Origin: a virus
Direction: 5' to 3' (one strand)
DNA: 64,000 nucleotides
Virus record (IMG/VR): IMGVR_UViG_3300028423_000904
Coordinates: 1 to 64,000 of that record
Under the pieces are notes generated by a model that saw nothing but the letters and a program-made list of their open reading frames with translations, made no database searches and had not been told where the DNA came from. The translations under genes were made by a program, and so were the position numbers. Shown piece by piece: positions 4,462 through 44,010 of this stretch. Every line of letters begins with the position of its first letter. The stretch's first letter is position 1.

Positions 4462-7400
4462 ATGGCACAAAGCGTACGTCAAAGAAACCTGTTTGCAGCA
4501 GAAGATTATCGTTTAGTTTACGATAGTTTCAAACAGGCAAACTTTCAAGCTTACGATTATGATACAATTCGCGGAGCGTTGGTTGATTACATTCAACAAC
4601 AATATCCGGAAAATTTTAACGATTGGTTACAGAGTTCAGAATTTGTTGCGCTGATTGAGACACTTTCATTCTTAGCGCATTCCTTAGCATTTAGAATCGA
4701 TCAAGCAGGACGTGAAAATTTTCTAAGCACCGCCGAACGCCGTGCCAGCGTTTTAAGGATTGCTGACTTTCTTGGATATACACCAACAAGACATCAACCA
4801 GCTCGAGGACAACTGAAAATTGTGAGTATTCGAACAACTCAAGATGTTTATGATATCAATGGTAGCAGCCTTAAAAACACCACTGTGGATTTCGAAGATG
4901 ATTATCAGAATTTTCTTTTGGTCATGAACGAAATACTCAACCCAACTAATAAATTTGGCCGTCCAACAAATTCTACACGCATTGGTAGTATAAAAAATGA
5001 CATTTACTCGACCAATATTTCTGGAAACCGTGAAGTCACATATCCTTTCAATGCAGAAATTAATGGTAATCGTAATTCATTTGAAATCCACGGCGTGGAA
5101 ATCAATACAACAAAAAACATTTTACAAGAATCAGAACCAGACCCTGCAGGAAGTTTTGATCTTGTCTACAAAAATGATGGTCAGGGATTAGGCAGTAACA
5201 ACACAGGATTTTTCGTAGGATTCAAACAAGGAACATTAAAATTTAATGACATTAATGCTGATCAGGCTGTAAGTGACTTGCTTGTAGACCTGAATGAAAC
5301 AAATGTTAATAACAGTGATGTATGGGTTCAAGAAATTAATTCAGCAGGAGAGGTTCAAGATTCATGGACTAAAGTTGATTCTAGTTTTGGTGCAAATACC
5401 ATATTCAATAATATACGTCAGGACAATCGAAAACTCTATACAGTAAAAACCTTGGATAATGACAATATTAATATCCAATTTGGTGATGGTGTTTTTGCAG
5501 AGATACCTCGCGGATTAATCCGTATCTGGTACCGCACTGGTGTAAACCAAACATACGCACTCTCGCCTGATGATGTTGGCACAGTTTCATTTGGTTTTGA
5601 TTACGAAGCAGCAGACGGAAATTCTTATTCTGTCACATTTGGTTGTGAACTCCAAGAACCAGTAACAAACGCAGCATCACGTGAGTCAGTATCAAGTATC
5701 AAGAAAAATGCAGGACGTGTTTTTGCATCACAAGATAGAATGATTACAGCCGGTGATTATTCTGTATTTCCGCTTACAGTGAGTGAAAATATTCGAAAAA
5801 TTAAAGCTGTAAATCGCACATATTCTGGCCATTCAAGATTTATAAAACCACAAGACCCTACAGCAACATACCAGAGTGTCGATATGGTTTCAGATGATGG
5901 ATATATCTTTACTCAGGGTGTAACATACAGGACATCACTTGATTTGCCTTCAACACTTGGTAGTGACCAGATTTACGAGCGTTACCTTGCAGATATAATT
6001 GAAAATCCAGAAGTTATCAATTTGTTTTATGACAAGTATAGCGAAACAGAAGTAGATTTTTCTACATCAACTGGAAGCTATGAATGGCAGCAAATCACGT
6101 CTGGCTATAGGGGGTCGACTGGATATTTTACTTTGAACGGTGTTATTCAAAAATCAGGTCAAAATGCAACAAATGATTTAAACCTTGCACGTCCGGGGTC
6201 AATTATTGAGTTTATCGAAGCACCATATAATGAAGGAACATTGGGCGAACCTGGTGATTCATTAACAATAGTAAATCAAGGTAGTGAGTTTACTTCTGCA
6301 CCAACTGTTACTATTCGTGGAACAGGCACGGGAGCAGAAGCAGTCGCTACTGTTTCTGGCGGTCAGCTTGCCAGCGTAACACTTACCAATGGTGGATCAG
6401 GATATCAGAATCCAGTTATCGTTGAAATTTCAGGAGGTAGTGGTATCAATGCAGAAGTGGTTGCAACAGCTACCACGGCAAAGAAAAGTTGGGCTCGTGT
6501 TGTTGACATTGTTAATGAAGGACAAGGCATCACAGACTCAAATGGTAATCCAACTGGATTAACAAGTCGGGGACAAGGGGCGATTGTTTTAAACAAAGCA
6601 ATTCCAAATACTGCACGAGTTTCCAGAATCTTCCCAGCATACAAAAATGTATTTTCAGAAGAAGAAAAAGAGGAAATACTTGAAGAAATTTCAAACTTTA
6701 ATACGTTTGGATTGCGTTATGATGAAAATGATAACAGATGGAAAATCATCCGTGCTGGTGATTTGCCTGAACCAGATGAAAACAGTCCGGACAATTTTAG
6801 TTTTGCTAATGCTGGGGATCGAACAAGCAATAACCTTGACCATAGTTGGATCGTTCGAGTAGATTACAGTTCTGACGCATGGTCATTTGTTTCACGTCGT
6901 TCAAGGATTGTGTTTGGTTCTGATGAAAGGATACGTTTCTACAATCAAAACGGACGCCGTCGGTTTAATGTTGAAACAAACAAGCCAGAAAGAGATCGTA
7001 TTATTGTGAGCAAGATCAATACACGACCAAATGGAAGTGTTTATCCGATTAGTGAAGATTTGCCATTTTATGCTTACAAGTATTACACTGAGTCAGATGG
7101 TTATACTGACGATCGTAAAGTTATCGTGACATTGGCAGATGTTGATAATGACAATTATCCAGACAACCCACTGGCTTTCAAAACGCTTAGTGGTGCAAAC
7201 ACCATATACCTGGACACAACAACACAGGATGGTTTTGAATACACAGTTCGTTCAGATTCAGGAACCGCAGTAACAGGACGCGAGGACTTGACTTTTACTT
7301 GGAAACGCATTTCTGAATCAAATTATCGTATTGATCCTAGCCTGTCAAATATTATTGATGTTTATGTTCTTAACCAGAATTATGACACTAAATATCGTGA

Positions 7401-7896: not shown

Positions 7897-10800
7897 ATGT
7901 CTACAAACTATAGTGCCAAACCAACTGATGTAAAGAATTTCACAACTAGTGCAGAAGTCAATCTGCCACAAGATTTTCAAGACTATAGTGAATTTCTACC
8001 TCACATTAATCGCACAGAATCACTTCAGAGATTCTTTGGCGCTACAGTCAACCAACTGTTAAGCAGTGGCTCAACTCAAACAATCGATGCGTTCTGGGGT
8101 AGATTAAGTGGTCGAGACTATAATCCAGACCGTGATATTTTCAATCCTGAAACTAGTGCTGATCGTTTGAATTACCAGTTTCAGCCAGGCACAGTGTCCA
8201 AACTAGCAGGTGAACCACAACAAACTGTTTCTTATGTAAACTGGCTCAAGCGTTTGGAAAGCTTAGGCGCTGATCTAGACAACCATGACCGCGTATTCAG
8301 TGAACCAGGGTATGTTCTTGATCTGCCAATCAATACTGATATGTTTGTCAATTACGACAATTATTACTGGCTTGAAGGTGACATTCCACTGATTGAGATT
8401 GAAGCTACTGTTACTGATCCGATTGACATCGACGATATTGTTGCGGTTTCAGAATATACTACACCGACTCTTGGTAACTATAAAACTGTTGAATTTGTTA
8501 CAGGACTAAGAGTAAAATTCATAGGTGATTACGTTTCAAGCACTAGTGGTGATTACAGTGCAGACGCAATTTATTTTGTGGAAAATGTCGGAGATCGTGA
8601 CGGTATCAAACTTGTTGAAATTCAGGATGCAGCAGGGAATGACAGGTTTCCACGATATACTCCATATTACATTCAGCCGCGTGAAGGATGGGATACTGTA
8701 GATTGGGATACAACTCCCTGGGATGGTTTTGCTGATTTTGAAGAATATAATATTTCAACAACAGAAACACGAGAAGATCTTGCGCTAAACAAATCTTATA
8801 TTGTAATGGAACGATGGGCTGAAGACAAAAACCCATGGGCAAGAACCAATCGCTGGTTTTCAATTCATGCATTAAGAGTTGCAACAGAATATAATGAACT
8901 TGATCTCGAGGCATATCTGAATAATAAAACTCGTGCAAAGAGACCAATTGTTGAATTCCAAGCAAACATGGAGCTCTATAATACATGCTCAACATTTGTT
9001 GAAACAATTGATTATGTCATTAGTATTGAACAGCTAACAGAAATGCTTTCTGGCCGCGCTAATTTCTTTATTGATAGTGAAAACGCAATTCAGAATGGAG
9101 ACACTATTCTTGTTGCAAAAGACGAACCAGGAGGTATTGAACTTGTAGAATTTAACGAAGACTTTAACGATGACTTTGATGCTGGCGAATCAAGCGATGG
9201 GCCTTTCGGCACCTCATTCAGCAAAGCATTTAATATCGGTATTCAAAACATTTTCTACGAAGATTCTTTTACTATAACTGGAGTTGGATCATCAATCAGT
9301 ATTACGCCTTATAATTCCTATAATAATGATGAATATATTATTGTTAAAAAAGGAACGGAAAAGGGTAAAATTTATTGCTATGATAATGGGACCTGGTCTG
9401 AAGCACAAACAAAAGAAACTCGTGGTTCACATCCTCTGTTCAATTTGTATGATCAGGAAAAAACAGCTCTAGAAAGTTTTGACAATACTGATTTCCAAGG
9501 CGACAAAGTTTTTGGTTATAAAACAAGTTCTGCAGGAATTTATGATCGTGAATTGGGAATGAGTCCTGAATATACGAACGATGGTGTATTCGGTAACTTC
9601 CGATTTGAATGGACACTGACAAATAACAGATATAATCAGGACATTACTATTAACACAGCAGAGGAAATACGTGGTTTCTATTTCTGGAGAGACCGTGTTC
9701 GTGATGAATATTTTAATGGCTGGTCAAATATAAGAGGATCTCAGCGCGTCCCTCTAATACAGACACAAGTCTCAGATGGTGATAATCAGATTGAATTTGA
9801 ATTAGGCACAACTGAAATTGATCATACAACTGAGTATACTGTGAGCTTGGTGGACGGTGCATATCGTTGGTATGATCATAGCTACATTGATCGCACACCA
9901 ATTGGTTATGCCAATCCAGAATTTGTTTGGAAATATGACACAGAATATACTATTAACGACTTGATCAGTGTTCCTGCTGATAAGTTAGAGTTTGTTGATC
10001 CTTATGGCAACACAGACGCGAATATTACTGTTGCCACAGTTAGTGATGTTCTTAAGAAAGTCGAAATTTCCTCGTCATATGATTATGGTGTTGTTTTGTA
10101 TCGTATGCAAAGCGATCCAACAGTTTATGGAGAAATTCATCTTACTAATGAAAATCATGAACGAGTTCGTGTTTATAAGAATGGACAAATTTTGTCAATT
10201 GACGATGATTACACCATTAGCGGAACCACTCTATCAGTAACAGCGGATTGTCAGGAAGACGATGTTGTTGAACTAATGTATGTTGCTGATACTGATCTAG
10301 AAAATGTTGTTTATGACGTTGCACCAGTTCATTTCTACAACAATGAAAACAATCCGTTTACTGAAGCAGGTTATGATGATCTTATTAATCACCTCTCTCG
10401 CCAGCTTTCCGCAATGCCAGGGTTTGAAGGTGATATTTTTGGACTAAACAATTACCATAAAACATTGCGTTTGAATACATACGATGGTCTTATTCGTCAG
10501 CAAATTCATCGCACCAAATTGTTGCATTATCTACTCGATCAGGAAAATATTAATCCTATCCGTGCTCTCAAAACCAATGCAAAAGATTATGCAAACTTTA
10601 AGAAATACTTTAGAAATAAAATTCACCAGCTGTGGAAAACAGAAAGCTGGAACAGTGTTCGTGAATTGGTTGATCGAGCAATTTCAGATATCAATATTGG
10701 TAAAAATAATGATTTCAAATATGCACATTCTGACATGCTTTATGCATCGCAGTATAAGACGTTAACTTATGAAATCACAGATGCAACAACTACATTTGCA

Positions 10801-13800
10801 CTTCCTGAAGTGATTAACAATTATGGCGACACACAGAATCATATTCAGGCATGGATTAGAGACTATGATTATGATCTTGAAAAATATATAGAACGTCCTC
10901 TTGTCAAGGGCATCGATTATACAATTTCTGGTCCCAATCTTGTGTTGTCAACTGATAATGACATTGTGACAAATTCAGGAAGCATCGTTGTTTCTTCTGG
11001 CGAAACCGTTGTTACTGATTCATACTATACAGGGTCAGAAACATACCCAACCACACTGACAATTCGTTGGTATGATTATAACAAGAACAGTCATGTTCCG
11101 TTCAGTGCAGTTAAGCTAGGGTTCTTCCGTCCTACACAAGTTGAAGTTGTGGACGGAGAACTTATTGGTCACGATGGTTCACGTTATGAACTCACAGGAA
11201 GTGACCTAGTTGATATGGAGAGCAGCAACTTTGATGTTATAGCTGCCGCGTTGTGGGATTTTGAACTTCGTATCTACAATAACCTTGTTGATAAGCATTT
11301 TGTTGGAAATGACATGGGACAGGACATGATGGACTTCTATCCGAACCCAGTCAGTGAATTTGCTTATACAGTTGATGATATCAATATTAGATTGGATGAT
11401 TGGTATAACCGCTGGGCAATTGAAAATGGAATTAGTGAAATTGATAATATTCCATACTCTGCTGGTGACGAGTTTACATGGAATTATTCTACTGTGGGTC
11501 CTGAGCTAGGAAGTTGGCGTTCACTATATGTGTATAATTTTGGAACAGACCGTCCAGACACACACCCATGGGAAATGCTAGGCCACCGCGTAAAGCCAAC
11601 TTGGTGGGATGATACCTACTCGTGGGATGCAGGATCAAAGCGTGACGCCCTCTTAGAAGCTCTGAAATACGGCATCACAGGCAACAAGACATCTGCATCA
11701 TATGTTGATATCAGGTATGCACGTTCAAATTATGATTGGGATAATGATGTTCTTGTAACTGATGATGGCACAGCAACACTAAATGGACCTGTCACAGCTA
11801 ATGTCGTATCTTCACCTGCGAGCGTCGACGCTGCAAAAGATTTTGTTTTTGGAGATTGGAGTGAAGTTGAAAACCAGTGGAGGAAAACAAGCGAATACTT
11901 GTTCGCACTTGCAGAGGTATACTTGCAACTCAAGCCATACCGTGTTCATGAACTTTTTTGGAGACTGGATCAGTGGAATGTTAACCAATCAGTCACACAA
12001 GAGCAGTGGGTTGATCCTGACAGTTGCCAGAGAACACATTATATTGAGATGCATAATCAGCTTATTGAGGATGGCGTTCTAGCAAAAATTAAGGTTCTGG
12101 ATGGCGGGTTCAATTATAGCAGCCTGACATTTGATTTTACTCCTGACAAACTTTGCTATCGCAATGCAGATGCCGAAGCTTACACGGATAGTGGAAACGT
12201 AACAGGTGTTGCAGTTCTTGATCCTGGGCGCGGGTTCGAGAAAGATCCTGATGTAGAATTGATTGGGTCGAGTGGTTCTTCAGGTGTTGAGTTGGAATAC
12301 ACGATTGATCAAGAATTTGTAATCACCCGTCTGGGATATATCAGTCTTCCATCAGAAGAATTCCGTGTAAATGAACGTTATACAAATGATTTAACAGCTA
12401 CTCTGTCCAATCTGGATATCTCATATATGTTGCACGTTGGTGGTTACACCGACAAGAGAATACTTGATGTTCAAATTGATGGTGATTCGGATTCTGGATT
12501 GATTAATATTCCGCAGAATAGTTATAATATCCTTATTGATCGTAATGCGCCAAATCAAACATTGTTCTACTCAGGTGTGAAAATCGAAAAAGTTGAAGGC
12601 GAAGGTTATCGTGTTGAAGGTTATAATCTTGACAGTAAGTATTTCAATTATCTTCGTCCGTCAACAGCAGGTAAACAAACTTCTGTTCAGATTGGTAATA
12701 CGATGGTTACCAAGTATCTCAAATGGCATAATGAAATTGCACGTATACCATATCGAACAACATTTATCAAGCGTCAAGAGCTATATCAATTCTTGTTGGG
12801 TCTGGCAGAATATTACGAAACACAGGGATTTGCTGTTAGATCACAATGGGAAGCTGAAGCACGTGATGCAATTGAATGGGCTCTCAGTAATGACACGGAT
12901 CCGTTCTATGTTAATGGCATTGGTAGCGAGCTTGTTTTCAAGCAAGGAAGCACAGGTGTTGTGCAAACAATCGACGTCAATTACGATGGTGTAAACAATG
13001 TTCTAGACCACAACTATAAAGGAATTCGTCGTAATGATCTCCTTGTATTGCGCGACGAAAACCAGACTGAAATATCACTGAGAAATGGTGATGATCGAAT
13101 TTATGGTCTTGGTGTTCGTGTGGTAGAATTTGAACATATTATTGTTATCGACAATGTTACAGTGTTTAATGATCCTATATACCAGCCAGAATTGGGCCTA
13201 GGACAAAATCGTGTCCGTCTAGTTGGTGAAAGAACCAGGAATTGGAACGGACGAGTTGAAGCACCAGGATATATTGTTCAGGATCGCGGATTGGTTCTTA
13301 ATATTGAAAGCAGTGTTCGTGAACTAGAAACCGACTGGGTAACATCAGAAAGCAAGGCACTAGAACGTCTAACACGACAGACCATTGGTTTCAATGTCGG
13401 GTATAGTAAACCCACATACATGACCAATACCTTTGTTGGTGATCTTTCAGCATATCGTTTTGAAAAGGGTGAACGCAAATACCGAGGAACAGAATCTGCT
13501 ATTGAAGCAATGACTAGAAGTAAAAATGTTTTTGGTGCAGAATTTGAGCATGAATTATATGAAGAGTGGATGGTTCGTCTTGGTGATTACGGTGATGTTA
13601 GTGAGCGCAACCCTCTAAAATTTGCTGTTGATCCAGACAAAATCAAAAACGATCCACAGCATTTCCGATTCAATGAAATCTTTAGAAGTGATCGTAGTGA
13701 TGACCTAATCATTGATATCAATAAAGGCGGCAATGATGCGATCAGTGGAGATTTTAATTCACCATTTAGCATTTACAATGTTCTTCGCCAAGACAACACA

Positions 13801-16800
13801 AGCATTCAGGATCTTGAAGAATATCAGGAATTCACTCGTGATGCTGGGTTGCCACTTGTTAGTGAAATTGATTACTTCCTAGGAAGTATCGACGACATCG
13901 GAGACATCTATGACCCGACGCAGCCTTATGCATTGATTCCAAATTGGAGTGAAACCACTGCATATGTTCAGGGTGATGAAGTTCGTCGTTACGGCAAGGT
14001 TTACAGGCTAAAAATTGAGTCAACCGGACTGACCAATGTTCGTGATGATATTGTAGTTCGAGGAACTCAGGTGTTCCCGCAAATTGCAAATGGTGAAACA
14101 TTTATTGCAAATAATGAAACTGTAACATTCAGCAAGACCGAACAAAATGTCACATTTGATAACATCGTTCTAGATGGAACCGTTACAAATCCAACCGTTC
14201 CTTCAGGTTCAACTCTTGTTCTTGATGGCATTAATGTTAACTTTATCAAAACAGAAACCACAACAAATTACAGTGATATTTTGATTGAAGGGAATGTTAT
14301 TAATCCTACCATTGAGAATGGAGCCAGCCGAACAGTTACTATCAATTATGCAAACAATGCAACCAATCCTCTTACAACTGTAACAGTTGATTTCGACGAG
14401 CTTGATACTGAACTCACAATGCAGCAGATCTGGATTAATGCACTTGATACCGCAGGTGTTGGAGACCCAGTGAGCTTCACGAATGATCGTATATCTGCAT
14501 TGGCTGCACTACAAACAGCATATATCGGAGCAAATAACGTATCGGCCTGGGAATCATTTATCAATGATTATTTTGATTCAACAGCCAATCCTGATCTTTA
14601 TATCAATCCAGAGTTTTTAGGATCGCAGGTTCAAGCTAACCCAGGCGCAGCATGGGAGACACAAGCTAGAAACCTAATTGACCTTGATCTTGCTCTAATT
14701 GAAGAGTTATCTGGTAATACCTCGACTGAAGATCAATCATCAATAGTTAGTGGAACGCTTAATGACTCTGCACAGTTCAACAGTGATCGTGATGAAGCCA
14801 ACAACCTGTTAGATTATAATAACACAGCAAATGACGACAACCAAAATCTCCAGTCATTCCGCACTTTTGTTGAAACCAATGGTGGGACAACCATTGCTAG
14901 TGGTGTTGAAGTCACAGTTATCAATCCAAAAGAATATGTAATTGATGATCTTTCAGCAATCGTTACAAAAATTAACAATGCGTTGACCGCAGCTAGTGCC
15001 CCATCAGATATCAGTGCAGAAGCAACCGGTAGTGACACATTACTATTGAAGCGTGAAAACAACGAAGAAGGATACCGCTTGGGTGTTGAAGTAGACACCG
15101 ATCTTGGTTTTGTTGGCGCTGATAAAGATGTCGAAACACAGGGTTCAACAGTTACTGGGCCAGTCGATCTAACACTTACTGAAGCAGCCGTTGCTATTAA
15201 TAATGCAAGTGTTTCTGGAGTATCAGCACAAGTTAACACAAATGTTCTTCGTCTTGTAAGTGTAAATCAAACCCTCACTGTTGGAAGTGGATCAGCGAAC
15301 GATGATCTTGGATTTACCATTGGAACATACAATGCATCTTCAAACACAACTACCATTCCAGTTGATCTGTCAGTTGGTGATGTTGTGTCACAAATAAATG
15401 CAGCAAACATTGAAAACTTAACAGCAAGCCAGGTTGAAGGTGTGTTGCTCATTACATACATTGGTGAAACATTGGAAATTGGTGCAGGCACTGCCAATGC
15501 AGAACTTGGACTTGCACAAGATACATATGAATCACTAACCAACGAAGTCCAAAATGTATTCAATTCAGATGATTGGACTGTAGTACAAGAGCCTGCACAT
15601 TTTAATATCTGGACAATTGACAATATTGGTTCAGATCCGTTTGGATCAGCAGTTACAACAAATCGTTACGATGTATACCAGACTGTTGATTTTGATATTG
15701 GAATTCTTGAGGTCTGTGCAGGAAACGAGAGTGGCGACAATGCACTTGTAAAAACCGACACACCGCATACATTAAATGTTGGTGATTATTTCCTAATTGT
15801 TAATTCAACTTGTGTTCCAAGTGCAGACGGTATCCATCAAGTAACAGGTTTGTTAAATGACCAAGGCTTCTACTATGACCAGTATATTGATGAAAAAGGG
15901 TTTACTGGCAAAGTTATACCGTTGCGCTCAGTTCGTTTTGCTAGCAATGTTGAAGCGGAGCAGGCTCTTGAAAATTCTGATTATATACAGAGCACAAAAG
16001 GTCTACGCAATGGAGATTATGTATATGTTGATGACATAATCCAAAATGGCACATCTCAAGGAAAAGGTGCGGTGTATACCGTAGACAGAACATTCAGTGG
16101 CAATGGATTAAAATTAGTTCGTGAAGAAGTTGGTAAAACCAAGAATAATGAAATTAAAAATGGTGTTCTATACAGTGGCGAAACTGGAGAAACTCTAATT
16201 AGATTCGAAGTGTTTGATCCACTCAAAGGAATTATTCCTGGAATTGCTGATCGTGAAATCGACTTGCGTAGCGATGTTGATTTTGCAAATTATAATAACA
16301 GCACTGATCCAGACACAGACCTCAAAGAAGAAAATGCTTGGGGTGATAAGCAGGTAGGCACTGTATGGTGGGATTTGAGCAATGCAATCTATCTCAACTA
16401 CGACCAGAGCACACCAGAATATCGTCAGGAACATTGGGGCCAGTTGTTCCCAACTGGTTCAATTGACATTTATGAATGGACCAAGAGTCCTGTCACACCA
16501 GATCAGTATACTGGTGCAGTGCAAGCTGGAACAACTATAGATGGTATCGAATTAACTGGAATTCCGTATGGAATTCGTGATCAATTTGGCGAAATCCAGT
16601 ATAACTGGTGTGAAGAAGTAGAACTCAACCCTAATACAAATCAGGTAGAAACCTATTATTATTTCTGGGTTGGTAACAAAACAACCACACCAACACTAGA
16701 TCGTGAATACTCAGTGTTGCAACTAGAAGATATTATCTTGAATCCAACTTCGCAGCAAGTTGATTGGCTAGCGGCAACTAGTGAGAACACGTTGCTGGCA

Positions 16801-18999
16801 AGCAGTCTACGTAATGCAATTGGATATGATGATCTTGTAATGCTTGTTAATTTTGATCGTAATAGCAGTGACTATCACCAAGAATTTATACTATTGGCCG
16901 AAAATGATCCAAGCACTCAAATTCCAGAATGGCTGCATATCAGTCTACGAGATAGTCTTGCAGGATTTACACAAGCTAAAGGAACATACGAATACGAACA
17001 GTGGGATTCATCAGAAACATACGTGCCAGATGAAATTGTGAAAGGTTCTAGTGGCAATTACTTCCGTTGCCATACTGAATCAACCAATAATGATCCAGAT
17101 CTGGACACTGACAATGATTATTGGACACAACTTGAGTTCAACGAACTTAATCCGGATGGTGACTTTAACGGTGTGAACACAGTTGCAGTTAACGAACCTC
17201 AGATGATACCTGACTTGTCGTTGCATCCAATTGTTCGTTATGGTCTAGAAACTCGTCCACACCAAGCCTGGTTCCAGGATGTATCTGAAGCTCGACGAGT
17301 CCTTGTAGACAAATTAAATGATCAACTCGCTGATATCAATTTGATTGATAGTGATATTCCGTGGAGAGAAGAATTTGAACGTTCATTCTCCATTGGAGAT
17401 CTTGAATATGATATACGTGATTACTGGAATTTTATTGATTGGTCAGCAAGTGATTATATTTTTGATACCAGCACTGGTGATTATTTCTTTGAAACAGTGT
17501 CTCAATTGGGAAATGTGACACCATCCGAAGGTGAGATTGCACATATTGAAACTAGTTCTAATCCAGATGGACGTAGCCGCAAGCAAGTATTCAAATATAC
17601 AAATGGCGAATGGGTTCTTGTTTTCAAAGAAAAAGCAACAATCAAGTTCAATACCCTGCTATGGGACAATGATGCAAACAATGCTGGGTGGGACGTTGCT
17701 GGATGGGACACCACGCCTTGGGACCTTACACCTGCAAGTGTTGTTGTTGAAATATTTGAAAGCTTCTACAATAAGATTTGGATCGAAGAAAGAAACATTC
17801 TTTATACCGATGTCTGGTTCCACCTTGCCAAGCATGTTATGCATGAACAAGAAGAAGTTGATTGGATTTTCAAAACCAGCTACTTCAAGATGATTGCTGA
17901 AGATGAACTTGAAAAGAGATACAACAAATATTTCTCAGACAATGTAGAAGACTTCTTTGACTTTATTAATACGGTAAAGCCATTCCGTAGTAAACTACGT
18001 GAAAGCATTGTAAGAAAAACTACGGATGAAGAAATCACAATGAACATGCAAGACACACTCGAAGTGAGGGTGCAGACAAACGAACTGCTAACTGAATCAG
18101 ACAATACCGATGAACAAGAAGGCAAACGTATTGTAGATCCATTTACACGTTCATTCCGCCTAACAGTTGGCAAAGACGGAAATAACTATTCAAGTCAAAT
18201 TGTCGACGATCATAAAGTGTTGCTAGGTTTGAGTATCGGTCCAGATGACACCGTAATTCCATACCTCAATGTAGGAGATACTACCCTACCAAACAACTCA
18301 GGTGCAATATGGATTAATGGAGAACGAATCGAATACACATCCAAGACCTTGATTACAAGTTCTGGTATTGGTTCAGGATTTAGCAGCGGATTTAGTTCAG
18401 GATTTGGTGGTGTTACATTGCTTACAGGCATAACACGTGGCACACAAGGAACTCTTGCTCGTGCACATAGTTATGGTGATATCATTGAAGATGAAACAGG
18501 ATTTGAGTTGGTTGAAAATAACACATTGAGTGATTATGGAAATGACATTCTTGCAGCATGGAATGAAAGTGGTGATCACTTGCTTAGTGATACGAACTCA
18601 AACGCAAACGCGGTTACTATCAGAGGAACGACCCTTGCAATAACTGGTATTACACAAGCTGATCCAGCAGTGGTTACTGTAGCAGATACAAGCTCGCTAT
18701 CAACCGGTATGACTGTGGGTATTAAAGATGTTGTGGGCATGACAGAAGTGAATGATCGTGCATTCACAATTACAGTAATTGATGGCACTACATTCAGCCT
18801 AGATGACGTAGACTCTTCTGGTTACACCGCTTATACATCAGGTGGCGTAGTTGATAATGGTGACTTGTTTGGAACCATTGAGCCTTATGGTAGCATCTTG
18901 TATACTCAGTGGCTCACATTGTCAGAAACAAACGAAGCAATTTCCGAATTCCAGGACGAATTGCAGGAATTAATCGAGACCTATTATACTACAATCTAA
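7897..18999 (+). CDS. Giant (3700 aa) virion structural protein, probable baseplate wedge (gp7-position) with CBM5/12-like and FCCH-like inserted domains
   Basis: Single uninterrupted ORF after gp6; GWD/PWD repeats; WSETTAYVQGDEV and WDSSETYVPDEIV CBM-like motifs; ITGITQADPAVVTV...GMTEVN...YTAYTSGG domain; NTVKPFRSKLRE near C-terminus. Confidence 0.75.
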   Translation: MSTNYSAKPTDVKNFTTSAEVNLPQDFQDYSEFLPHINRTESLQRFFGATVNQLLSSGSTQTIDAFWGRLSGRDYNPDRDIFNPETSADRLNYQFQPGTVSKLAGEPQQTVSYVNWLKRLESLGADLDNHDRVFSEPGYVLDLPINTDMFVNYDNYYWLEGDIPLIEIEATVTDPIDIDDIVAVSEYTTPTLGNYKTVEFVTGLRVKFIGDYVSSTSGDYSADAIYFVENVGDRDGIKLVEIQDAAGNDRFPRYTPYYIQPREGWDTVDWDTTPWDGFADFEEYNISTTETREDLALNKSYIVMERWAEDKNPWARTNRWFSIHALRVATEYNELDLEAYLNNKTRAKRPIVEFQANMELYNTCSTFVETIDYVISIEQLTEMLSGRANFFIDSENAIQNGDTILVAKDEPGGIELVEFNEDFNDDFDAGESSDGPFGTSFSKAFNIGIQNIFYEDSFTITGVGSSISITPYNSYNNDEYIIVKKGTEKGKIYCYDNGTWSEAQTKETRGSHPLFNLYDQEKTALESFDNTDFQGDKVFGYKTSSAGIYDRELGMSPEYTNDGVFGNFRFEWTLTNNRYNQDITINTAEEIRGFYFWRDRVRDEYFNGWSNIRGSQRVPLIQTQVSDGDNQIEFELGTTEIDHTTEYTVSLVDGAYRWYDHSYIDRTPIGYANPEFVWKYDTEYTINDLISVPADKLEFVDPYGNTDANITVATVSDVLKKVEISSSYDYGVVLYRMQSDPTVYGEIHLTNENHERVRVYKNGQILSIDDDYTISGTTLSVTADCQEDDVVELMYVADTDLENVVYDVAPVHFYNNENNPFTEAGYDDLINHLSRQLSAMPGFEGDIFGLNNYHKTLRLNTYDGLIRQQIHRTKLLHYLLDQENINPIRALKTNAKDYANFKKYFRNKIHQLWKTESWNSVRELVDRAISDINIGKNNDFKYAHSDMLYASQYKTLTYEITDATTTFALPEVINNYGDTQNHIQAWIRDYDYDLEKYIERPLVKGIDYTISGPNLVLSTDNDIVTNSGSIVVSSGETVVTDSYYTGSETYPTTLTIRWYDYNKNSHVPFSAVKLGFFRPTQVEVVDGELIGHDGSRYELTGSDLVDMESSNFDVIAAALWDFELRIYNNLVDKHFVGNDMGQDMMDFYPNPVSEFAYTVDDINIRLDDWYNRWAIENGISEIDNIPYSAGDEFTWNYSTVGPELGSWRSLYVYNFGTDRPDTHPWEMLGHRVKPTWWDDTYSWDAGSKRDALLEALKYGITGNKTSASYVDIRYARSNYDWDNDVLVTDDGTATLNGPVTANVVSSPASVDAAKDFVFGDWSEVENQWRKTSEYLFALAEVYLQLKPYRVHELFWRLDQWNVNQSVTQEQWVDPDSCQRTHYIEMHNQLIEDGVLAKIKVLDGGFNYSSLTFDFTPDKLCYRNADAEAYTDSGNVTGVAVLDPGRGFEKDPDVELIGSSGSSGVELEYTIDQEFVITRLGYISLPSEEFRVNERYTNDLTATLSNLDISYMLHVGGYTDKRILDVQIDGDSDSGLINIPQNSYNILIDRNAPNQTLFYSGVKIEKVEGEGYRVEGYNLDSKYFNYLRPSTAGKQTSVQIGNTMVTKYLKWHNEIARIPYRTTFIKRQELYQFLLGLAEYYETQGFAVRSQWEAEARDAIEWALSNDTDPFYVNGIGSELVFKQGSTGVVQTIDVNYDGVNNVLDHNYKGIRRNDLLVLRDENQTEISLRNGDDRIYGLGVRVVEFEHIIVIDNVTVFNDPIYQPELGLGQNRVRLVGERTRNWNGRVEAPGYIVQDRGLVLNIESSVRELETDWVTSESKALERLTRQTIGFNVGYSKPTYMTNTFVGDLSAYRFEKGERKYRGTESAIEAMTRSKNVFGAEFEHELYEEWMVRLGDYGDVSERNPLKFAVDPDKIKNDPQHFRFNEIFRSDRSDDLIIDINKGGNDAISGDFNSPFSIYNVLRQDNTSIQDLEEYQEFTRDAGLPLVSEIDYFLGSIDDIGDIYDPTQPYALIPNWSETTAYVQGDEVRRYGKVYRLKIESTGLTNVRDDIVVRGTQVFPQIANGETFIANNETVTFSKTEQNVTFDNIVLDGTVTNPTVPSGSTLVLDGINVNFIKTETTTNYSDILIEGNVINPTIENGASRTVTINYANNATNPLTTVTVDFDELDTELTMQQIWINALDTAGVGDPVSFTNDRISALAALQTAYIGANNVSAWESFINDYFDSTANPDLYINPEFLGSQVQANPGAAWETQARNLIDLDLALIEELSGNTSTEDQSSIVSGTLNDSAQFNSDRDEANNLLDYNNTANDDNQNLQSFRTFVETNGGTTIASGVEVTVINPKEYVIDDLSAIVTKINNALTAASAPSDISAEATGSDTLLLKRENNEEGYRLGVEVDTDLGFVGADKDVETQGSTVTGPVDLTLTEAAVAINNASVSGVSAQVNTNVLRLVSVNQTLTVGSGSANDDLGFTIGTYNASSNTTTIPVDLSVGDVVSQINAANIENLTASQVEGVLLITYIGETLEIGAGTANAELGLAQDTYESLTNEVQNVFNSDDWTVVQEPAHFNIWTIDNIGSDPFGSAVTTNRYDVYQTVDFDIGILEVCAGNESGDNALVKTDTPHTLNVGDYFLIVNSTCVPSADGIHQVTGLLNDQGFYYDQYIDEKGFTGKVIPLRSVRFASNVEAEQALENSDYIQSTKGLRNGDYVYVDDIIQNGTSQGKGAVYTVDRTFSGNGLKLVREEVGKTKNNEIKNGVLYSGETGETLIRFEVFDPLKGIIPGIADREIDLRSDVDFANYNNSTDPDTDLKEENAWGDKQVGTVWWDLSNAIYLNYDQSTPEYRQEHWGQLFPTGSIDIYEWTKSPVTPDQYTGAVQAGTTIDGIELTGIPYGIRDQFGEIQYNWCEEVELNPNTNQVETYYYFWVGNKTTTPTLDREYSVLQLEDIILNPTSQQVDWLAATSENTLLASSLRNAIGYDDLVMLVNFDRNSSDYHQEFILLAENDPSTQIPEWLHISLRDSLAGFTQAKGTYEYEQWDSSETYVPDEIVKGSSGNYFRCHTESTNNDPDLDTDNDYWTQLEFNELNPDGDFNGVNTVAVNEPQMIPDLSLHPIVRYGLETRPHQAWFQDVSEARRVLVDKLNDQLADINLIDSDIPWREEFERSFSIGDLEYDIRDYWNFIDWSASDYIFDTSTGDYFFETVSQLGNVTPSEGEIAHIETSSNPDGRSRKQVFKYTNGEWVLVFKEKATIKFNTLLWDNDANNAGWDVAGWDTTPWDLTPASVVVEIFESFYNKIWIEERNILYTDVWFHLAKHVMHEQEEVDWIFKTSYFKMIAEDELEKRYNKYFSDNVEDFFDFINTVKPFRSKLRESIVRKTTDEEITMNMQDTLEVRVQTNELLTESDNTDEQEGKRIVDPFTRSFRLTVGKDGNNYSSQIVDDHKVLLGLSIGPDDTVIPYLNVGDTTLPNNSGAIWINGERIEYTSKTLITSSGIGSGFSSGFSSGFGGVTLLTGITRGTQGTLARAHSYGDIIEDETGFELVENNTLSDYGNDILAAWNESGDHLLSDTNSNANAVTIRGTTLAITGITQADPAVVTVADTSSLSTGMTVGIKDVVGMTEVNDRAFTITVIDGTTFSLDDVDSSGYTAYTSGGVVDNGDLFGTIEPYGSILYTQWLTLSETNEAISEFQDELQELIETYYTTI

Positions 19000-22492: not shown

Positions 22493-23227
22493 ATGACAAC
22501 TCGCACTAAAATCCAAAAAGAAATTGAATTGCGTTTGGGTGGACAAATGACAGATGTCGAGCTCGATCCTGAACATTACGAGCTTGCTATAGACAAAGCA
22601 CTGGAAAAATTTAGACAGAGAAGCGAAAATTCTGTTGAGGAAGATTTCCATTTTTTCGAAGTTCAAACTGATCAGAACACGTATGTATTTCCAGATAATA
22701 TTATAGATGTCAAAGATTTGTATGGTAGGGTTTCTGGAACAACATCTACAGGTGTTGATTTTGAACCATTTGAAGCAAACTATTGGAACACCTTTCTTGC
22801 CAAAAACGGTGGTTCAGGGAGTCTTGCAATGTATGATTTTCTTGCACAGTATCATGAAACACTAGGTCGTTTGTTTGGCTCTGAATATGTGTTTACGTGG
22901 CGCCGCCAAACACATGAACTTTATCTACATCGTCGTCCTAGGTATCCTCGTCCAATTTATGCACATGTTTATAAGTATAGAACTGAAGATGATTTGTTTT
23001 CAGATCATATGACCATGCCATGGATCAAAGACTATGCCCTAGCTCAAAGCAAATTCATGTTGGGTGAAGCTCGTAGTAAGTTCGCAACCTATGCTGGACC
23101 ACAAGGCGGAACCACATTGAATGGCGATCAACTTAAAGCAGATGCACTTAATGAGATTGAAAGACTTGAAGAAGACATTAAACTCTACAAAGAAGGTTCA
23201 GCAGGTCTAGGAATTATCATAGGGTAA
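22493..23227 (+). CDS. gp13: Neck protein gp13-like
   Basis: LRLGGQMTDVELD, WIKDYALA, GPQGGTTLNG motifs. Confidence 0.85.
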   Translation: MTTRTKIQKEIELRLGGQMTDVELDPEHYELAIDKALEKFRQRSENSVEEDFHFFEVQTDQNTYVFPDNIIDVKDLYGRVSGTTSTGVDFEPFEANYWNTFLAKNGGSGSLAMYDFLAQYHETLGRLFGSEYVFTWRRQTHELYLHRRPRYPRPIYAHVYKYRTEDDLFSDHMTMPWIKDYALAQSKFMLGEARSKFATYAGPQGGTTLNGDQLKADALNEIERLEEDIKLYKEGSAGLGIIIG

Positions 23228-23232
23228 TCTAA

Positions 23233-23985
23233 ATGAAAGTTTCTGATATACTTGAACACAAAACCCGCCAAGGAAAAGAAATTAAATTTAAGAAAACACT
23301 AGATTCTGAAGATGAAAATCGTGGTTTTGTAGTGCACCAGCTTGATGCATTTGTGGATGGAGTTCATGCTGGTTATTTGAAAATTTCGTATATACCAAGT
23401 GAGCTATTCAAAAAGTATAATCCAACTATTTTTAATTGGATGGCAAATTTTAGTGGAAAAACAACAATTGTTCCTTTCGGTAAGGAAGCAGAACATTATA
23501 CAAATTTTACCAGAGAAGAAAAAACAAGGCTATTGAAATATTGGAGTGGATCAATAAGTGATCTAAATCGTGATTTTTCAGAATACAGTGATGAAGAGCT
23601 CACTAAAATTATTCAAGAACTTGAATCTCGTATTCTTAAAGGCAAAGATCAAGATATCAAGAATATAAAGAAAGACTATAACAAGTTTATCGATCATCAT
23701 GTTGATAAACCAAAAGTAGATTTTATCAATGTAAGAGAAAAGGATAGTTTCAATCGAAATTATCATGACGACGCCCAAGCAGATTTTAGACGTCAGGGTA
23801 TTGCTCTAGCACTTTATCAAGAAGGTTCTAAGTGGATGGACAACATGGGATTGCGGTTATATGCAAGCTCATTGCAACAGCCCGAGGCAAAAGCAGCCTG
23901 GGACAAGATGGAACGTTTAGGGTGGGTTGATCATGATGGCAACAGGTTATATCTTAACCCTCAAAAACTTCCAGAAAACAGTTGA
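23233..23985 (+). CDS. GNAT-fold protein, candidate head-packaged internal protein
   Basis: FRRQGIALALYQ acetyl-CoA motif A and QPEAKAAWDKM; N-terminal MKVSDILE. Confidence 0.55.
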   Translation: MKVSDILEHKTRQGKEIKFKKTLDSEDENRGFVVHQLDAFVDGVHAGYLKISYIPSELFKKYNPTIFNWMANFSGKTTIVPFGKEAEHYTNFTREEKTRLLKYWSGSISDLNRDFSEYSDEELTKIIQELESRILKGKDQDIKNIKKDYNKFIDHHVDKPKVDFINVREKDSFNRNYHDDAQADFRRQGIALALYQEGSKWMDNMGLRLYASSLQQPEAKAAWDKMERLGWVDHDGNRLYLNPQKLPENS

Positions 23986-24010
23986 CATCTCCAAGACGTT
24001 TTACTATATT
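23982..24010 (+). promoter_or_regulatory. Early sigma70-type promoter
   Basis: TTGACA-N17-TATATT followed by TGTAAGCAA and GGAGA. Confidence 0.8.
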
Positions 24011-24036: not shown

Positions 24037-24486
24037 ATGACTGCTCAACATGACCTTTTTGAAAGCCAAATTACTGATTCCCGTGACGCCCTGCGCTTTG
24101 TTTATGCTGGCCGCGCACTGTTCACTATTGTCAGCCGCAAAACCGGTCAACGGTTTACTTTCAAAGTCAATGCTCCGCATGATGACAAAGAGAGCCCTAT
24201 GCGTTTTGTCAAAGTCCTGAATGGCACTGATAATACCAGTGACTATCTTTACCTTGGTTTTTTGACCCTCAATCGCATGGGTAAACTTGCTGCCGGCAAA
24301 AAAGGCCGCGGCACTGCTCCTAGCTACCGTGCCCTGTCATGGACGCTTCGTCAGCTGGCAAAAGGCAAGATGCCTGAGGATCTTGAATTTCTTCACAGTG
24401 GTCGCTGCGGCGCTTGTGGTCGGACATTGACGGTTCCTGAAAGCATTAAGTCTGGTCTTGGTCCAGTGTGTGCAGGAAAAAGCTAA
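24037..24486 (+). CDS. DUF6011-like zinc-ribbon protein (early)
   Basis: C-terminal RCGACGRTLTVPESIKSGLGPVC; early promoter and GGAGA RBS. Confidence 0.75.
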   Translation: MTAQHDLFESQITDSRDALRFVYAGRALFTIVSRKTGQRFTFKVNAPHDDKESPMRFVKVLNGTDNTSDYLYLGFLTLNRMGKLAAGKKGRGTAPSYRALSWTLRQLAKGKMPEDLEFLHSGRCGACGRTLTVPESIKSGLGPVCAGKS

Positions 24487-24524
24487 CATACTGAAATCAT
24501 TGTAAACAAACCAAGACATTTTGG

Positions 24525-24553
24525 TTGACTCTCGGTTGTTTATCGCTTATATT
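24525..24553 (+). promoter_or_regulatory. Early sigma70-type promoter
   Basis: TTGACT-N17-TATATT followed by TGTAAGCAA. Confidence 0.8.
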
Positions 24554-24583
24554 CATAATGTAAGCAACGAAGGAGACACTGAT

Positions 24584-24937
24584 ATGGACACCCAGAAGCA
24601 ACTTGACAAGGCCATCGACCAACTGGTTGAAGATATCAAAACTGATTATGCCAATTGGCACCTTGCCAATGGTCAGGAAATGAACAAGATTAAAGAAGAA
24701 ATGATTGAAAACTTCAATGAAAATATTCGTGTTCAGCTTGGCCGCAAATATATCAAAATCATCAGTGAAGGCGGTGTGTGGGGCTTTATTGTCGCTGCCG
24801 AAGACGACCGCAAATTCAAAGCTGGTGATATTCTGAAAGCTGCCGGATACAATGCTCCGGCCCGTAATGCTGCTCGTGGTAACGTTCTTGAGGGTGGTTA
24901 CACCATCAATTGGACTGGCCCGCTTTACCTGAAATGA
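24584..24937 (+). CDS. Conserved hypothetical early phage protein
   Basis: RKYIKI...GDILKAAGYNAPARNAARGN...WTGPLYL; start reassigned to ATG 24584 after AAGGAGA RBS and promoter. Confidence 0.75.
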   Translation: MDTQKQLDKAIDQLVEDIKTDYANWHLANGQEMNKIKEEMIENFNENIRVQLGRKYIKIISEGGVWGFIVAAEDDRKFKAGDILKAAGYNAPARNAARGNVLEGGYTINWTGPLYLK

Positions 24938-25158
24938 AACAAAACGATACTCCTGAAATAACAACAAAGCGCGAGGAATGTCTGAGGCTGGTGCGTGAAT
25001 TGGAAAAGTGGGATGTTTATCCTTTTCGTAAAGATCGCATCAGCCTCGACAAACAGATTAAATATACACGAAATATTCGTAGGCTTGATGAAATTCATGC
25101 ACGTCTTGAAATGCTACTTAGCAAGGCAGTAATGGAGAAATTATCCAAGGGTGTCTGA
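24934..25158 (+). CDS. Small helical protein, C-terminal-motif family member A
   Basis: ATGA overlap with upstream gene; ends LDEIHARLEMLLSKAVMEKL-SKGV. Confidence 0.7.
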   Translation: MKQNDTPEITTKREECLRLVRELEKWDVYPFRKDRISLDKQIKYTRNIRRLDEIHARLEMLLSKAVMEKLSKGV

Positions 25159-25159
25159 T

Positions 25160-25330
25160 ATGTCCAAATCAAAGAATCGCCGCCCTCAGCGCCCTAAAGA
25201 GCGCAATTTTTTTGCAAGGGCTGTTCGTGATCCTAACAGTCCCTTTCGGCCCAAGACTATCCCGGACAAACGAACTCGTCAAGAACAACGCAGACGAAAA
25301 CACAAAGGTCGTCTTGATGATGAAGAGTAG
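25160..25330 (+). CDS. 56-aa basic protein, ArfA-like (alternative ribosome rescue factor A) candidate; not in ORF track
   Basis: Hand translation MSKSKNRRPQRPKERNFFARAVRDPNSPFRPKTIPDKRTRQEQRRRKHKGRLDDEE; fills the gap between flanking genes. Confidence 0.55.
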   Translation: MSKSKNRRPQRPKERNFFARAVRDPNSPFRPKTIPDKRTRQEQRRRKHKGRLDDEE

Positions 25331-25339
25331 GTTAATGAA

Positions 25340-25597
25340 ATGAATACTGGTCAGGACCAAGCAGCAAAAGTAAGAAAATTGGTTGACGAAATTAGCCAAG
25401 AAGTCAATCATATTGACAACCGTAATCCGAATATCTATGCGAATTGCAAATTTAAAGGTGTTCTGTGTTTCCTCACAAGTGCACTATATGCAGAAGTTCA
25501 ACCAGGTAGCTTCTATGAAAGCTATACAATTGAAGCTCTAGAAAATTTTCTTGAAGAAATAAAGCAAGAAGAAATTATGGAAAAATTGAGATCATGA
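25340..25597 (+). CDS. Small helical protein, family member B
   Basis: Ends IEALENFLEEIKQEEIMEKL-RS. Confidence 0.7.
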   Translation: MNTGQDQAAKVRKLVDEISQEVNHIDNRNPNIYANCKFKGVLCFLTSALYAEVQPGSFYESYTIEALENFLEEIKQEEIMEKLRS

Positions 25598-25851
25598 CGC
25601 AAGACGAACAAAATGCAATTGATCTTGAGCGTGTAAGATCGAAACGAGCCAGGGCCCTTACCGCCCTGGATGAATATATGAAATGGGTGTACCCTTCTCC
25701 TATGAGACTGAGTGAAGGTGTGCAGTGTCTACATAGCGTTTATAAACGCAATATTACGCACGGAACAGAGGATGATGTTGATCGCTTGATTAAGTGGTAT
25801 GAAGAAAGTAACGAAATGTCACTTTTTCAAAAGATAACAGAAGATTTATAA
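25594..25851 (+). CDS. Small helical protein, family member C
   Basis: ATGA overlap; ends VDRLIKWYEESNEMSLFQKI-TEDL. Confidence 0.7.
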   Translation: MTQDEQNAIDLERVRSKRARALTALDEYMKWVYPSPMRLSEGVQCLHSVYKRNITHGTEDDVDRLIKWYEESNEMSLFQKITEDL

Positions 25852-26054
25852 TGAATTCACGCATAAGAGAACTGAGAACACAGGCGTGTGAAAAGGTCAA
25901 TGAGCTTAGAGAATGGGACGGCATTGATAATGTTGATGCTGCCCAAATGCTTTATAATATTGATCAGATCGATTCTTTAGAGACTCTTGAAAAACTTGTT
26001 CAGGACCTGACTGATAATTGTCAAAAAGCAATGTTTAAAAAAATATCCAAATGA
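25851..26054 (+). CDS. Small helical protein, family member D
   Basis: TAATG overlap; ends LEKLVQDLTDNCQKAMFKKI-SK. Confidence 0.7.
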   Translation: MNSRIRELRTQACEKVNELREWDGIDNVDAAQMLYNIDQIDSLETLEKLVQDLTDNCQKAMFKKISK

Positions 26055-26404
26055 TTGGAAAAATTGAACACAAGATACATTTGTTTTTGTATAGATATAT
26101 TCCCTTCTATCGTTATAATAGTGATAGAAGAAAAGCCTTCAAAGAAATTGAAAGGCTATGCAATGACTTGCAGGCATATTATTATCATAGAAGAAATGAC
26201 ACAAGATATTGTCACGGGATAGAACAAAAACTCGACACTGCAATTGAATGTTGGAGTAAGGTGAATGAAATACACGAAATTCGTCAACACTCTATACGTC
26301 TTTATTATGATACTAAAATCCTCGACGAATTAACAGGAATACAAAAAAGTCTAGAAGAAAGACTTGAAGAAGCCACAATGGAAAAAATGTTACAGAACCT
26401 CTAA
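26051..26404 (+). CDS. Small helical protein, family member E
   Basis: ATGA overlap; ends LTGIQKSLEERLEEATMEKM-LQNL. Confidence 0.7.
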   Translation: MIGKIEHKIHLFLYRYIPFYRYNSDRRKAFKEIERLCNDLQAYYYHRRNDTRYCHGIEQKLDTAIECWSKVNEIHEIRQHSIRLYYDTKILDELTGIQKSLEERLEEATMEKMLQNL

Positions 26405-26411
26405 TAATGCA

Positions 26412-26440
26412 TTGATTTCAAAGTATAATTATGCTATATA
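26412..26440 (+). promoter_or_regulatory. Possible sigma70-type promoter for the dNMP kinase
   Basis: TTGATT-N17-TATATA. Confidence 0.5.
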
Positions 26441-26462: not shown

Positions 26463-27089
26463 ATGAAAAGAAAAATTATCGGAATTTGTGGCTTTATTGG
26501 GTGTGGTAAAGGAACGGTTGGAGATATCCTCGAACAGGATTATGGGTTTACTAAGATTAGCTATGCTGATAAGCTCAAAGACACTGTCGCGACTATGTTC
26601 GATTGGGATCGTGATTCAATTGAAGGCAACACTGCTGAAAGTCGTGAATGGAGAGAAACACCTGATGAATTCTGGTCTAAAGAACTGGGATATGATTTTA
26701 CTCCACGTATGGCTATGCAGCGCATAGGCACTGATTGTATGCGTCAGGGCTTGGATCATCACGTTTGGGTTTTGTTTGTTAAAAAGAAACTTTTAGATAA
26801 TCCTGAAACAAATTTTGTGATACCAGATGTGAGATTTTTCAATGAAAGAGATCTCATACGCAATCTTAACGGACAAATATGGCGTGTAAAAAGAGGCCCA
26901 GACCCTGAATGGGTCAATAAAGCGATCTCTGATAATCGTTATGATACAGAATGGATGAAAGACCATCCAGAAATTCACGAAAGTGAATGGAGGTGGCTGG
27001 ATTATCCTACTGAATTTGACTTTAATATTACGAATGATGGCGGCATGAAAGAATTATACAAGCATGTCGAAAGAGCAATAAGAGATTAA
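26463..27089 (+). CDS. Deoxynucleoside monophosphate kinase (T4 gp1-like)
   Basis: IIGICGFIGCGKGT P-loop, YADKLKD, TPRMAMQRIGTD, DVRFFNE, HESE motifs. Confidence 0.92.
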   Translation: MKRKIIGICGFIGCGKGTVGDILEQDYGFTKISYADKLKDTVATMFDWDRDSIEGNTAESREWRETPDEFWSKELGYDFTPRMAMQRIGTDCMRQGLDHHVWVLFVKKKLLDNPETNFVIPDVRFFNERDLIRNLNGQIWRVKRGPDPEWVNKAISDNRYDTEWMKDHPEIHESEWRWLDYPTEFDFNITNDGGMKELYKHVERAIRD

Positions 27090-43809: not shown

Positions 43810-44010
43810 ATGACGAAAGAAATCAAATATCACCAAGAACGTATTTCTGAAATCAAAGACCGCATTGCTGATAACCGGCGTGAGCTCGAAGAACTTAAAA
43901 ATTCCGATGCTCCTGGATATCTGATTCCTATGAAAGAGTTGGAAATAAAGGATAACACCAAAATCCTTCGCAAGCACGAGCGCCAGCTTAAAAAACTTCA
44001 AAACCAGTAA
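43810..44010 (+). CDS. Small coiled-coil early protein
   Basis: AGGAG RBS; heptad pattern. Confidence 0.65.
   Translation: MTKEIKYHQERISEIKDRIADNRRELEELKNSDAPGYLIPMKELEIKDNTKILRKHERQLKKLQNQ

Follow-up and report, generated by a model that had tools for sequence, protein, structure and literature searches.

A viral DNA stretch of 64,000 nucleotides (the window), the first 64 kb of a linear 91.5-kb viral contig that is ~25% complete (CheckV), carries five small genes, A to E, whose products all end in the same tail, a hydrophobic residue followed by [M/F]-x-K-[L/I/M]. Four of these products, A, C, D and E, are, as judged from profile comparisons, diverged tandem full-length paralogs of one previously undescribed family (hereafter the main family). 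The helix that they share is primarily a hallmark of their common fold rather than a module added to unrelated bodies, and this fold is predicted to be a three-helix bundle in which the motif closes helix 3. The remaining protein, B, is assigned by its sequence to a separate conserved family, which has only its last 8–12 residues in common with the main family. The best explanation overall, which we hold to be reasonably probable, is that the main-family paralogs are three-helix bundles, made from an early operon, that would contact a common partner through a conserved surface at one pole.

The source of the window is probably an uncultured jumbo myovirus, since the tail sheath of its contig (819 aa) is ~46% identical to that of the Pseudomonas jumbo phage PA5oct, and relatives of the small genes are located on contigs of 320–347 kb. 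The five ORFs and their C-termini lie where the preliminary description had placed them, between positions 24934 and 26404 (Table 1). That most of the small genes are translationally coupled, as proposed there, is confirmed by the overlaps at their junctions, which read ATGA between the DUF7717-like gene and A, between B and C and between D and E, and TAATG between C and D. The A gene and that of the basic peptide meet in TGAtATG, and a gap of 9 nt separates the basic peptide from B. A literature search on the names DUF6011, DUF7717 and DUF7230 returned no paper.

Table 1 Features of the small-gene island and its borders (positions in the window)
Feature	Coordinates	Strand	Remarks
Sigma-70-like promoter heading the island	23982..24010	+	TTGACA-17-TATATT, 11/12 consensus match
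DUF6011 protein, first island gene	24037..24486	+	C-terminal DUF6011 Cys motif; PF19474 E 1.9e-14, phrog_20259 E 7e-38; syntenic in related contigs
DUF7717-like protein	24521..24937	+	PF24835 E 1.6e-4 (below curated cut-off); phrog_5014 and phrog_818 at ~E 1e-5; stop overlaps the A start
A	24934..25158	+	Assigned to the A subtype of the main family; helix 1 ends ...ELEKW, tail VMEKL plus 4 aa
Very basic peptide, DUF7230-like, 56 aa	25160..25330	+	PF23876 E 7e-4, below cut-off; outside the main family
B	25340..25597	+	Assigned to a separate small-protein family; common to the main family is the terminal [A/E]-[V/I]-M-x-K-L-x-S tail only
C	25594..25851	+	Assigned to the C subtype of the main family, the most widespread subtype; orthologs in 9/9 related islands
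D	25851..26054	+	Assigned to the main family; short, without the N-terminal extension of helix 1
E	26051..26404	+	Assigned to the main family; divergent and longer, with N-terminal extension and insert; orthologs at L031 2982-3299 and L052 5246-5623
Second sigma-70-like promoter, closing the island and heading the dNMP kinase gene	26412..26440	+	TTGATT-17-TGcTATATA
dNMP kinase, conserved right-hand island border	26463..27089	+	PF21448 E 1.2e-13, phrog_139 E 8e-43

The genomic context of these genes was read from nine related viral contigs (designated by L and a number), all of which carry the island. Its order is a ~250-aa structural gene, a promoter, the DUF6011 protein, (X), the DUF7717-like protein, (A), the basic DUF7230-like peptide, B, (Zn), C, (D, E or post), a promoter, the dNMP kinase and the tail sheath. 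The types in brackets (A, D, E, X, post and Zn) are present in some genomes and missing from others. The basic peptide, B and C are neighbours in all nine islands and adjacent in most: B stands directly between the other two in six, with a gene of the Zn-ribbon type interposed in three, and the basic peptide precedes the B-type gene in eight of the nine, the Zn-ribbon gene lying between them in L001. Orthologs of the basic peptide were located in L001, L030, L031, L045, L046, L050, L051 and L052. In more distant relatives, from which the island is absent altogether, the kinase gene follows the ~250-aa structural gene directly, or one unrelated gene later. The region is an accessory operon of small genes, an insertion that separates conserved structural genes from the dNMP kinase gene, and it is carried by a clade of uncultured, probably jumbo, myoviruses. 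Both in the 91.5-kb contig and in a relative of 168 kb, the tail-bearing ORFs and the family members were found in the island only.

The promoter that heads the island recurs as TTGACA-N17-TATA[T/G]T in L001, L030, L046/L049 and L050, in the same position ahead of the DUF6011 gene, and it is conserved in five of the seven distinct relatives examined; the elements upstream of the kinase gene (cTTGAttt ... tgcTATA) are kept in most of the eight relatives examined. Judged by the promoter consensus, this conservation suggests that the island is transcribed early by the host polymerase, which fits the earlier description of these genes as an early operon.

An exhaustive profile search of 1.84 billion representatives (E ≤ 1e-3) gave 52 matches. 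With one exception these are proteins of 67–117 aa that align along their whole length; a 590-aa protein, of which only a short stretch aligned, was left out. The family consists of ~50 clusters at 50% identity, all metagenomic, with a typical size of about 70–90 aa. As a non-circular test, the profile was rebuilt from 47 metagenomic relatives, with no window protein included, and run against the 590 ORFs of at least 40 aa of the whole 91.5-kb contig. The first four ranks were taken by C (E 2.4e-20), A (2.2e-18), D (3.9e-9) and E (7.9e-4), and the match to B (E 2.3, rank 10) is not significant. Full-length alignments with hhalign gave 93% for the C group against the A/X group and 81% for the C group against D; the main family against the E group gave 97%, but that family profile contains E itself. 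These full-length links, together with the independent profile, indicate that A, C, D and E are tandem paralogs of a single family. Their middle parts, which had been described as different, do differ in raw identity, but the four proteins are homologous from end to end.

The consensus of the main family comprises helix 1 (KR..A..LL.EF..W), a variable loop, helix 2 (GL.RDI) and helix 3 (L..LI..L...N..A[L/M]M.KL[S][E][N/G][L]). The N-terminal R..A...h.E...W motif, which had been noticed in three of the five proteins, belongs to this signature. Conservation is highest in the column of the Trp that ends helix 1 (48 of 51 sequences), and only the column of the start Met comes near; the Lys of the tail, in M-x-K-L, is found in 51 of 51 sequences. 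After the Trp, the order of conservation is the tail Lys and Met, followed by Arg18, Ile55 and Ala21. Both Trp and Lys are carried by A, C and D, while E has the Lys, but Tyr or Ala for the Trp, and B has the Lys only. The subtypes that recur across genomes are C-like, A-like, X-like (located between the DUF6011 and DUF7717 genes), E-like and the short 'post' type.

The preliminary description did not recognise the family, and indeed there is no match to it in Pfam, PHROGs, NCBIfam, PADLOC or PDB sequences: scans of the first four libraries gave no family for A, B and C, and sub-threshold matches only for D and E (E ~0.03–0.1). A DNA search of the region against 50,697 records of isolated phages, in near and distant mode, returned no relative, and in tblastn searches of isolated phages C gave only noise at E ≥ 4 and the basic peptide nothing. 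A scan of GTDB genomes with the C-type alignment also returned no relative, and hence no clue to the host. With the alignment of the five sequences, a word-indexed search among 5.8 billion proteins retrieved the window's own proteins only, and the ESM Atlas gave generic helical models only, with no usable feature match. Net charges are modest (+5 to −5, family median −1), and on this ground a reading of these proteins as DNA mimics was rejected.

The fold was examined with C, for which AlphaFold2 gave a model of high confidence (pLDDT 92.4, pTM 0.77) with helices at residues 3–32, 41–56 and 59–84. The 20-aa motif of the preliminary description corresponds to the second half of helix 3 in this model, where it is integral to the bundle (pLDDT 82–97) and continuous with the rest of the fold, with no flexible linker. 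Several minimal three-helix proteins align to residues 12/13–77/78 of the model and no further, helix 3 is longer than helix 2, and its hydrophobic phase shifts past the conserved Asn. On these grounds we infer that helix 3 extends beyond the compact core by its last two turns (M, x, K, L and the final L), close to the Trp and the variable loop. The tail is one of the most strongly conserved parts of the family sequence, and the conservation includes the polar S-E-N after K-L, for which a role in the core alone would give no reason.

Fold searches with the C model returned generic helical bundles only. Foldseek gave nothing at E ≤ 1e-3 against the PDB and BFVD, and a sequence profile search of the PDB found designed bundles only. 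The top match of the VIA wide search is likewise a designed bundle, with a Z of 8.0 that is within the noise for helical proteins (under Z 13). The best structural matches, the de novo designed three-helix bundles 7rmy, 7jzm and 7yh8 (Z 8.0, 6.3 and 6.0, rmsd 2.2–2.8), are generic and indicate merely a plain three-helix bundle. Among the top weak matches are the Epsilon/PezA antitoxins (PDB 1gvn and 2p5t), which are also three-helix bundles of ~85–95 aa, but differ in sequence (8–19% identity) and match the model only in the noise range for helical bundles (Foldseek E ~1–2, probability 0.2–0.5, TM 0.36–0.51; VIA Z 5.7). No zeta-like toxin or kinase was matched among the neighbouring genes scanned against Pfam and PHROGs.

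The family of B has seven syntenic orthologs and 14 database matches (E 1e-12 to 1e-29), and ends almost invariably in AVMxKLES, which is its most constant part. Against the main family, hhalign gave 8.9%, confined to the last 26 columns, with no similarity beyond the tail. With a main-family profile restricted to the tail, the window's B ranks fifth to tenth of the 590 ORFs (E 2.7–5.7, by tail length), and the B orthologs score E 0.002–0.4 in sets of a few hundred ORFs, matches that are weak individually and consistent across genomes. The AlphaFold2 model of B (pLDDT 73) has helices at 3–28, 30–51 and 58–84, nearly the layout of C, and this similarity makes a very remote homology between the two families possible. 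The last two codons of B-type genes are the only ones that seem to be under an additional constraint, from the ribosome-binding site and the ATGA of the following gene. A small Cys-rich protein that resembles a Zn ribbon is encoded in three relatives, in L001 ahead of B and otherwise between B and C, and a fourth relative has an unrelated gene between B and C. All four of these products end in the same tail.

As to whether the tail exceeds chance, a regular expression derived from the five tails matches these five alone among the 590 ORFs, and a looser expression gives 8 matches, where 2.2 would be expected from ORFs with their last 30 aa shuffled. The looser matches elsewhere in the contig, at 43810, 34704 and 76749, do not score with the main-family profile, and the ORFs at 43810 and 34704, which were the two scanned for families, gave no family match. 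Applied to 2,401 independent ORFs from 44 loci, the expression derived from the five gave 13 matches, six of them within the syntenic islands that three relatives carry. When each of the five proteins was left out of the profile in turn, the results were no more than suggestive, with A, B and E ranking first (E 0.015–0.06) and C and D ranking poorly. The motif had been described as lying always 2–4 aa from the stop; in the wider family the distance is usually 1–5 aa, but it reaches 11.

These data bear on the reading of the motif as a by-product, either of chance amphipathic C-terminal helices or of a nucleotide signal (ribosome-binding site, coupling element or promoter) in the 3' ends, which is largely refuted and to which we give hardly any credence. 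Pairwise phmmer comparisons among the five proteins are indeed weak (E 0.25–2 in the set of 590 ORFs), and in B-type genes the last codons coincide in part with a ribosome-binding site resembling GGAG/GAGA and with the ATGA of the gene that follows. However, the independent profile, with E values down to 2e-20, and the restriction of the regular expression to the five distinguish a real motif from random amphipathic C-termini, and the motif is absent from the ~585 other ORFs of this contig and from ~890 of the 168-kb contig. The E and A-type genes, moreover, keep the tail with no overlapping downstream start. We also analysed the codons of 32 tails from nine genomes, anchored on the Lys. The second positions hardly vary (T in hydrophobic codons, A in Lys), while the third positions are free, with 19 AAA and 13 AAG for Lys and all four bases in the Leu codon. 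This indicates that selection on the tail acts on the peptide, and an RNA- or DNA-level origin of the motif was rejected accordingly.

The preliminary description had proposed a set of modular adaptors, in which unrelated target-recognition bodies would each be fused to a portable C-terminal docking helix for a single hub, such as a protease, a chaperone, RNA polymerase or a phage ATPase. In the form of variable bodies with a common docking helix this is not supported, because four of the five window proteins are full-length homologs and the motif is helix 3 of their predicted bundle. The motif helix co-varies with a helix-1 signature that is equally or better conserved, there is no flexible linker in the model, in some members as many as 11 aa follow the motif, and no hub candidate emerged. 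In favour of the proposal, the motif is real, and B and the Zn-ribbon type, which have no other detectable similarity to the main family, carry the same tail within one operon; the predicted position of the tail beyond the compact bundle core and the conserved polar residues after K-L would also suit such adaptors, which on balance we consider unlikely. It seems just as doubtful that the 8–12-residue tail (hydrophobic-M-x-K-L-S/E-x) is by itself a portable docking peptide, which at least three unrelated early families of one operon would have gained or retained and which would deliver them all to one putative hub in the infected cell. The ATPase at 45289, which had been named as a possible hub, belongs to phrog_1250 (unknown function) and weakly resembles clamp loaders (E 8e-4). 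A clamp-binding reading of the tail was rejected, since this ATPase is only weakly clamp-loader-like and, to our knowledge, the motif resembles no clamp-binding consensus. Lower again in probability we place a reading of the proteins as mutual binding partners, in which the end of the shared helix would be a homotypic assembly element and the coupled genes would provide a hetero-oligomeric helical complex in fixed proportions. The tight translational coupling through ATGA and TAATG overlaps and the constant neighbourhood of the basic peptide, B and C would be expected of such a complex, and the conserved Asn and Lys fall, by helical periodicity, on a core-facing stripe of helix 3, like the register-setting positions of coiled coils; the variation of the A, D, E, X, post and Zn types between genomes, however, is unlike an obligate complex.

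In the explanation that we favour, of a conserved surface at one pole of the bundle, the operon would be transcribed early, from a promoter of the host type. This surface, rather than pure core, would be formed by the last two turns of helix 3 (M, K, L, then L) together with the Trp at the same pole, and through it the A to E types may contact one common partner, which could be a host protein, a phage protein or each other. The loop between helices 1 and 2, and helix 2 itself, would have been diversified by duplication, and the likely role would be a putative host takeover or counter-defence exerted through binding, not catalysis. A functional surface is favoured because two neighbouring families that otherwise have no detectable similarity to the main family retain the tail, because polar residues are conserved after K-L, and because the tail is probably outside the compact core and is confined to one coupled operon. 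Against this, Trp31, Arg18, Ala21 and Ile55 are as conserved as the tail, so that plain conservation of the fold also fits, and the match between the tails of B and the main family is short and individually weak. Should B, the Zn-ribbon type and the main family belong to a single superfamily whose members have diverged past recognition, the argument built on unrelated bodies would fall.

T4-like and jumbo phages have plastic regions with tandem paralog families of small early or ORFan genes, which do not form a curated family. The island described here is similar in having short, coupled and duplicated genes between conserved core genes, with host-type promoters and variable content, but its main family differs in having no match in Pfam, PHROGs, NCBIfam, PADLOC, PDB sequences or isolated phages. 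The capsid-targeting sequence of the T4 internal proteins is N-terminal, is found on late proteins and is cleaved after L/I-x-E. Like the tail, it is a short terminal peptide on several otherwise different small proteins of one phage. The tail, in contrast, is C-terminal, helical and part of an apparently early operon, and a Glu stands at x in three of the five tails, as compared by reading of the sequences; as a T4-type protease site (L/I-x-E) it was rejected, since only these three of five would fit. In SspB-type adaptors, a C-terminal tail that tethers ClpX follows a flexible linker. The proposed adaptors share with them the concept of a body docked to its hub by a short C-terminal peptide of hydrophobic and basic character, but in the C model the tail continues helix 3 of the fold.

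The main family, with ~50 clusters, and its 14-member sister family are new to the libraries, and combine a confident predicted fold with sharp signature residues. They are set in a conserved early-type operon of a clade of uncultured phages, probably of 320–350 kb. The finding is a well-defined lead, not the discovery of a mechanism. If the tail did prove to be a portable docking peptide, it would be the equivalent, at the C-terminus of early gene products, of the T4 capsid-targeting peptide or of a protease-adaptor tether. Small early phage proteins are a main source of host-takeover and counter-defence factors, and tandem duplication in which one pole of the bundle stays constant and the rest varies makes this family a reasonable candidate for such a role.

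The small-gene island, which is of early type, lies amid late structural genes and is flanked by two sigma-70-like promoters, both of which are kept in position and sequence across related viral contigs. A head-tail adaptor-like gene and a gene for a 250-aa protein are located just 5' of the island, which indicates that it interrupts a late structural block.

Features of the window and of loci from other viral contigs
Feature	Sequence	Coordinates	Remark
Long open reading frame	window	7897-18999 (+)	~3,700 aa
Head-tail adaptor-like gene	window	22493-23227	phrog_211, E 2e-33
250-aa protein	window	23233-23985	weak GNAT match
Sigma-70-like promoter	window	23982-24010
Sigma-70-like promoter	window	26412-26440
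Very basic peptide	window	25160-25330	~53-56 aa in all four
Very basic peptide	L031	2326-2487
Very basic peptide	L046	3053-3214
Very basic peptide	L050	4608-4772
Two neighbouring tiny ORFs	L030	1111-1435	62 and 47 aa
Cys-rich protein	L029 (123-kb contig)	5700-5966	88 aa

Within the island, the B-type gene, which encodes a member of a separate small-protein family, is preceded by the gene of a very basic peptide (...RDP..PFRPKTIP...RKRKHKG...) in eight of the nine islands. The match of this peptide to Pfam DUF7230 (E = 7e-4) is below the cut-off, and it gave no match to an ArfA family at E ≤ 1.

The tiny ORFs of L030 lie between the DUF6011 and DUF7717 genes, and both carry the pattern W..G.W..NY....FD.WL, a shared sequence that suggests another tandem duplication within the same island. 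In L029, the gene of the Cys-rich protein, which ends in ...LYDVLEKMNE, is immediately 5' of a distant DUF7717 homolog. This protein may be a remote relative bearing the C-terminal tail of the three-helix small-protein family, to whose profile its match is not significant (E = 3.9).

The window also contains one very long open reading frame. CheckV estimates that the 91.5-kb contig is 25% complete and a 168-kb relative 46% complete, and homologs were found on database contigs of 320-347 kb; taken together, these values indicate that the whole phage genome is probably ~330-360 kb.
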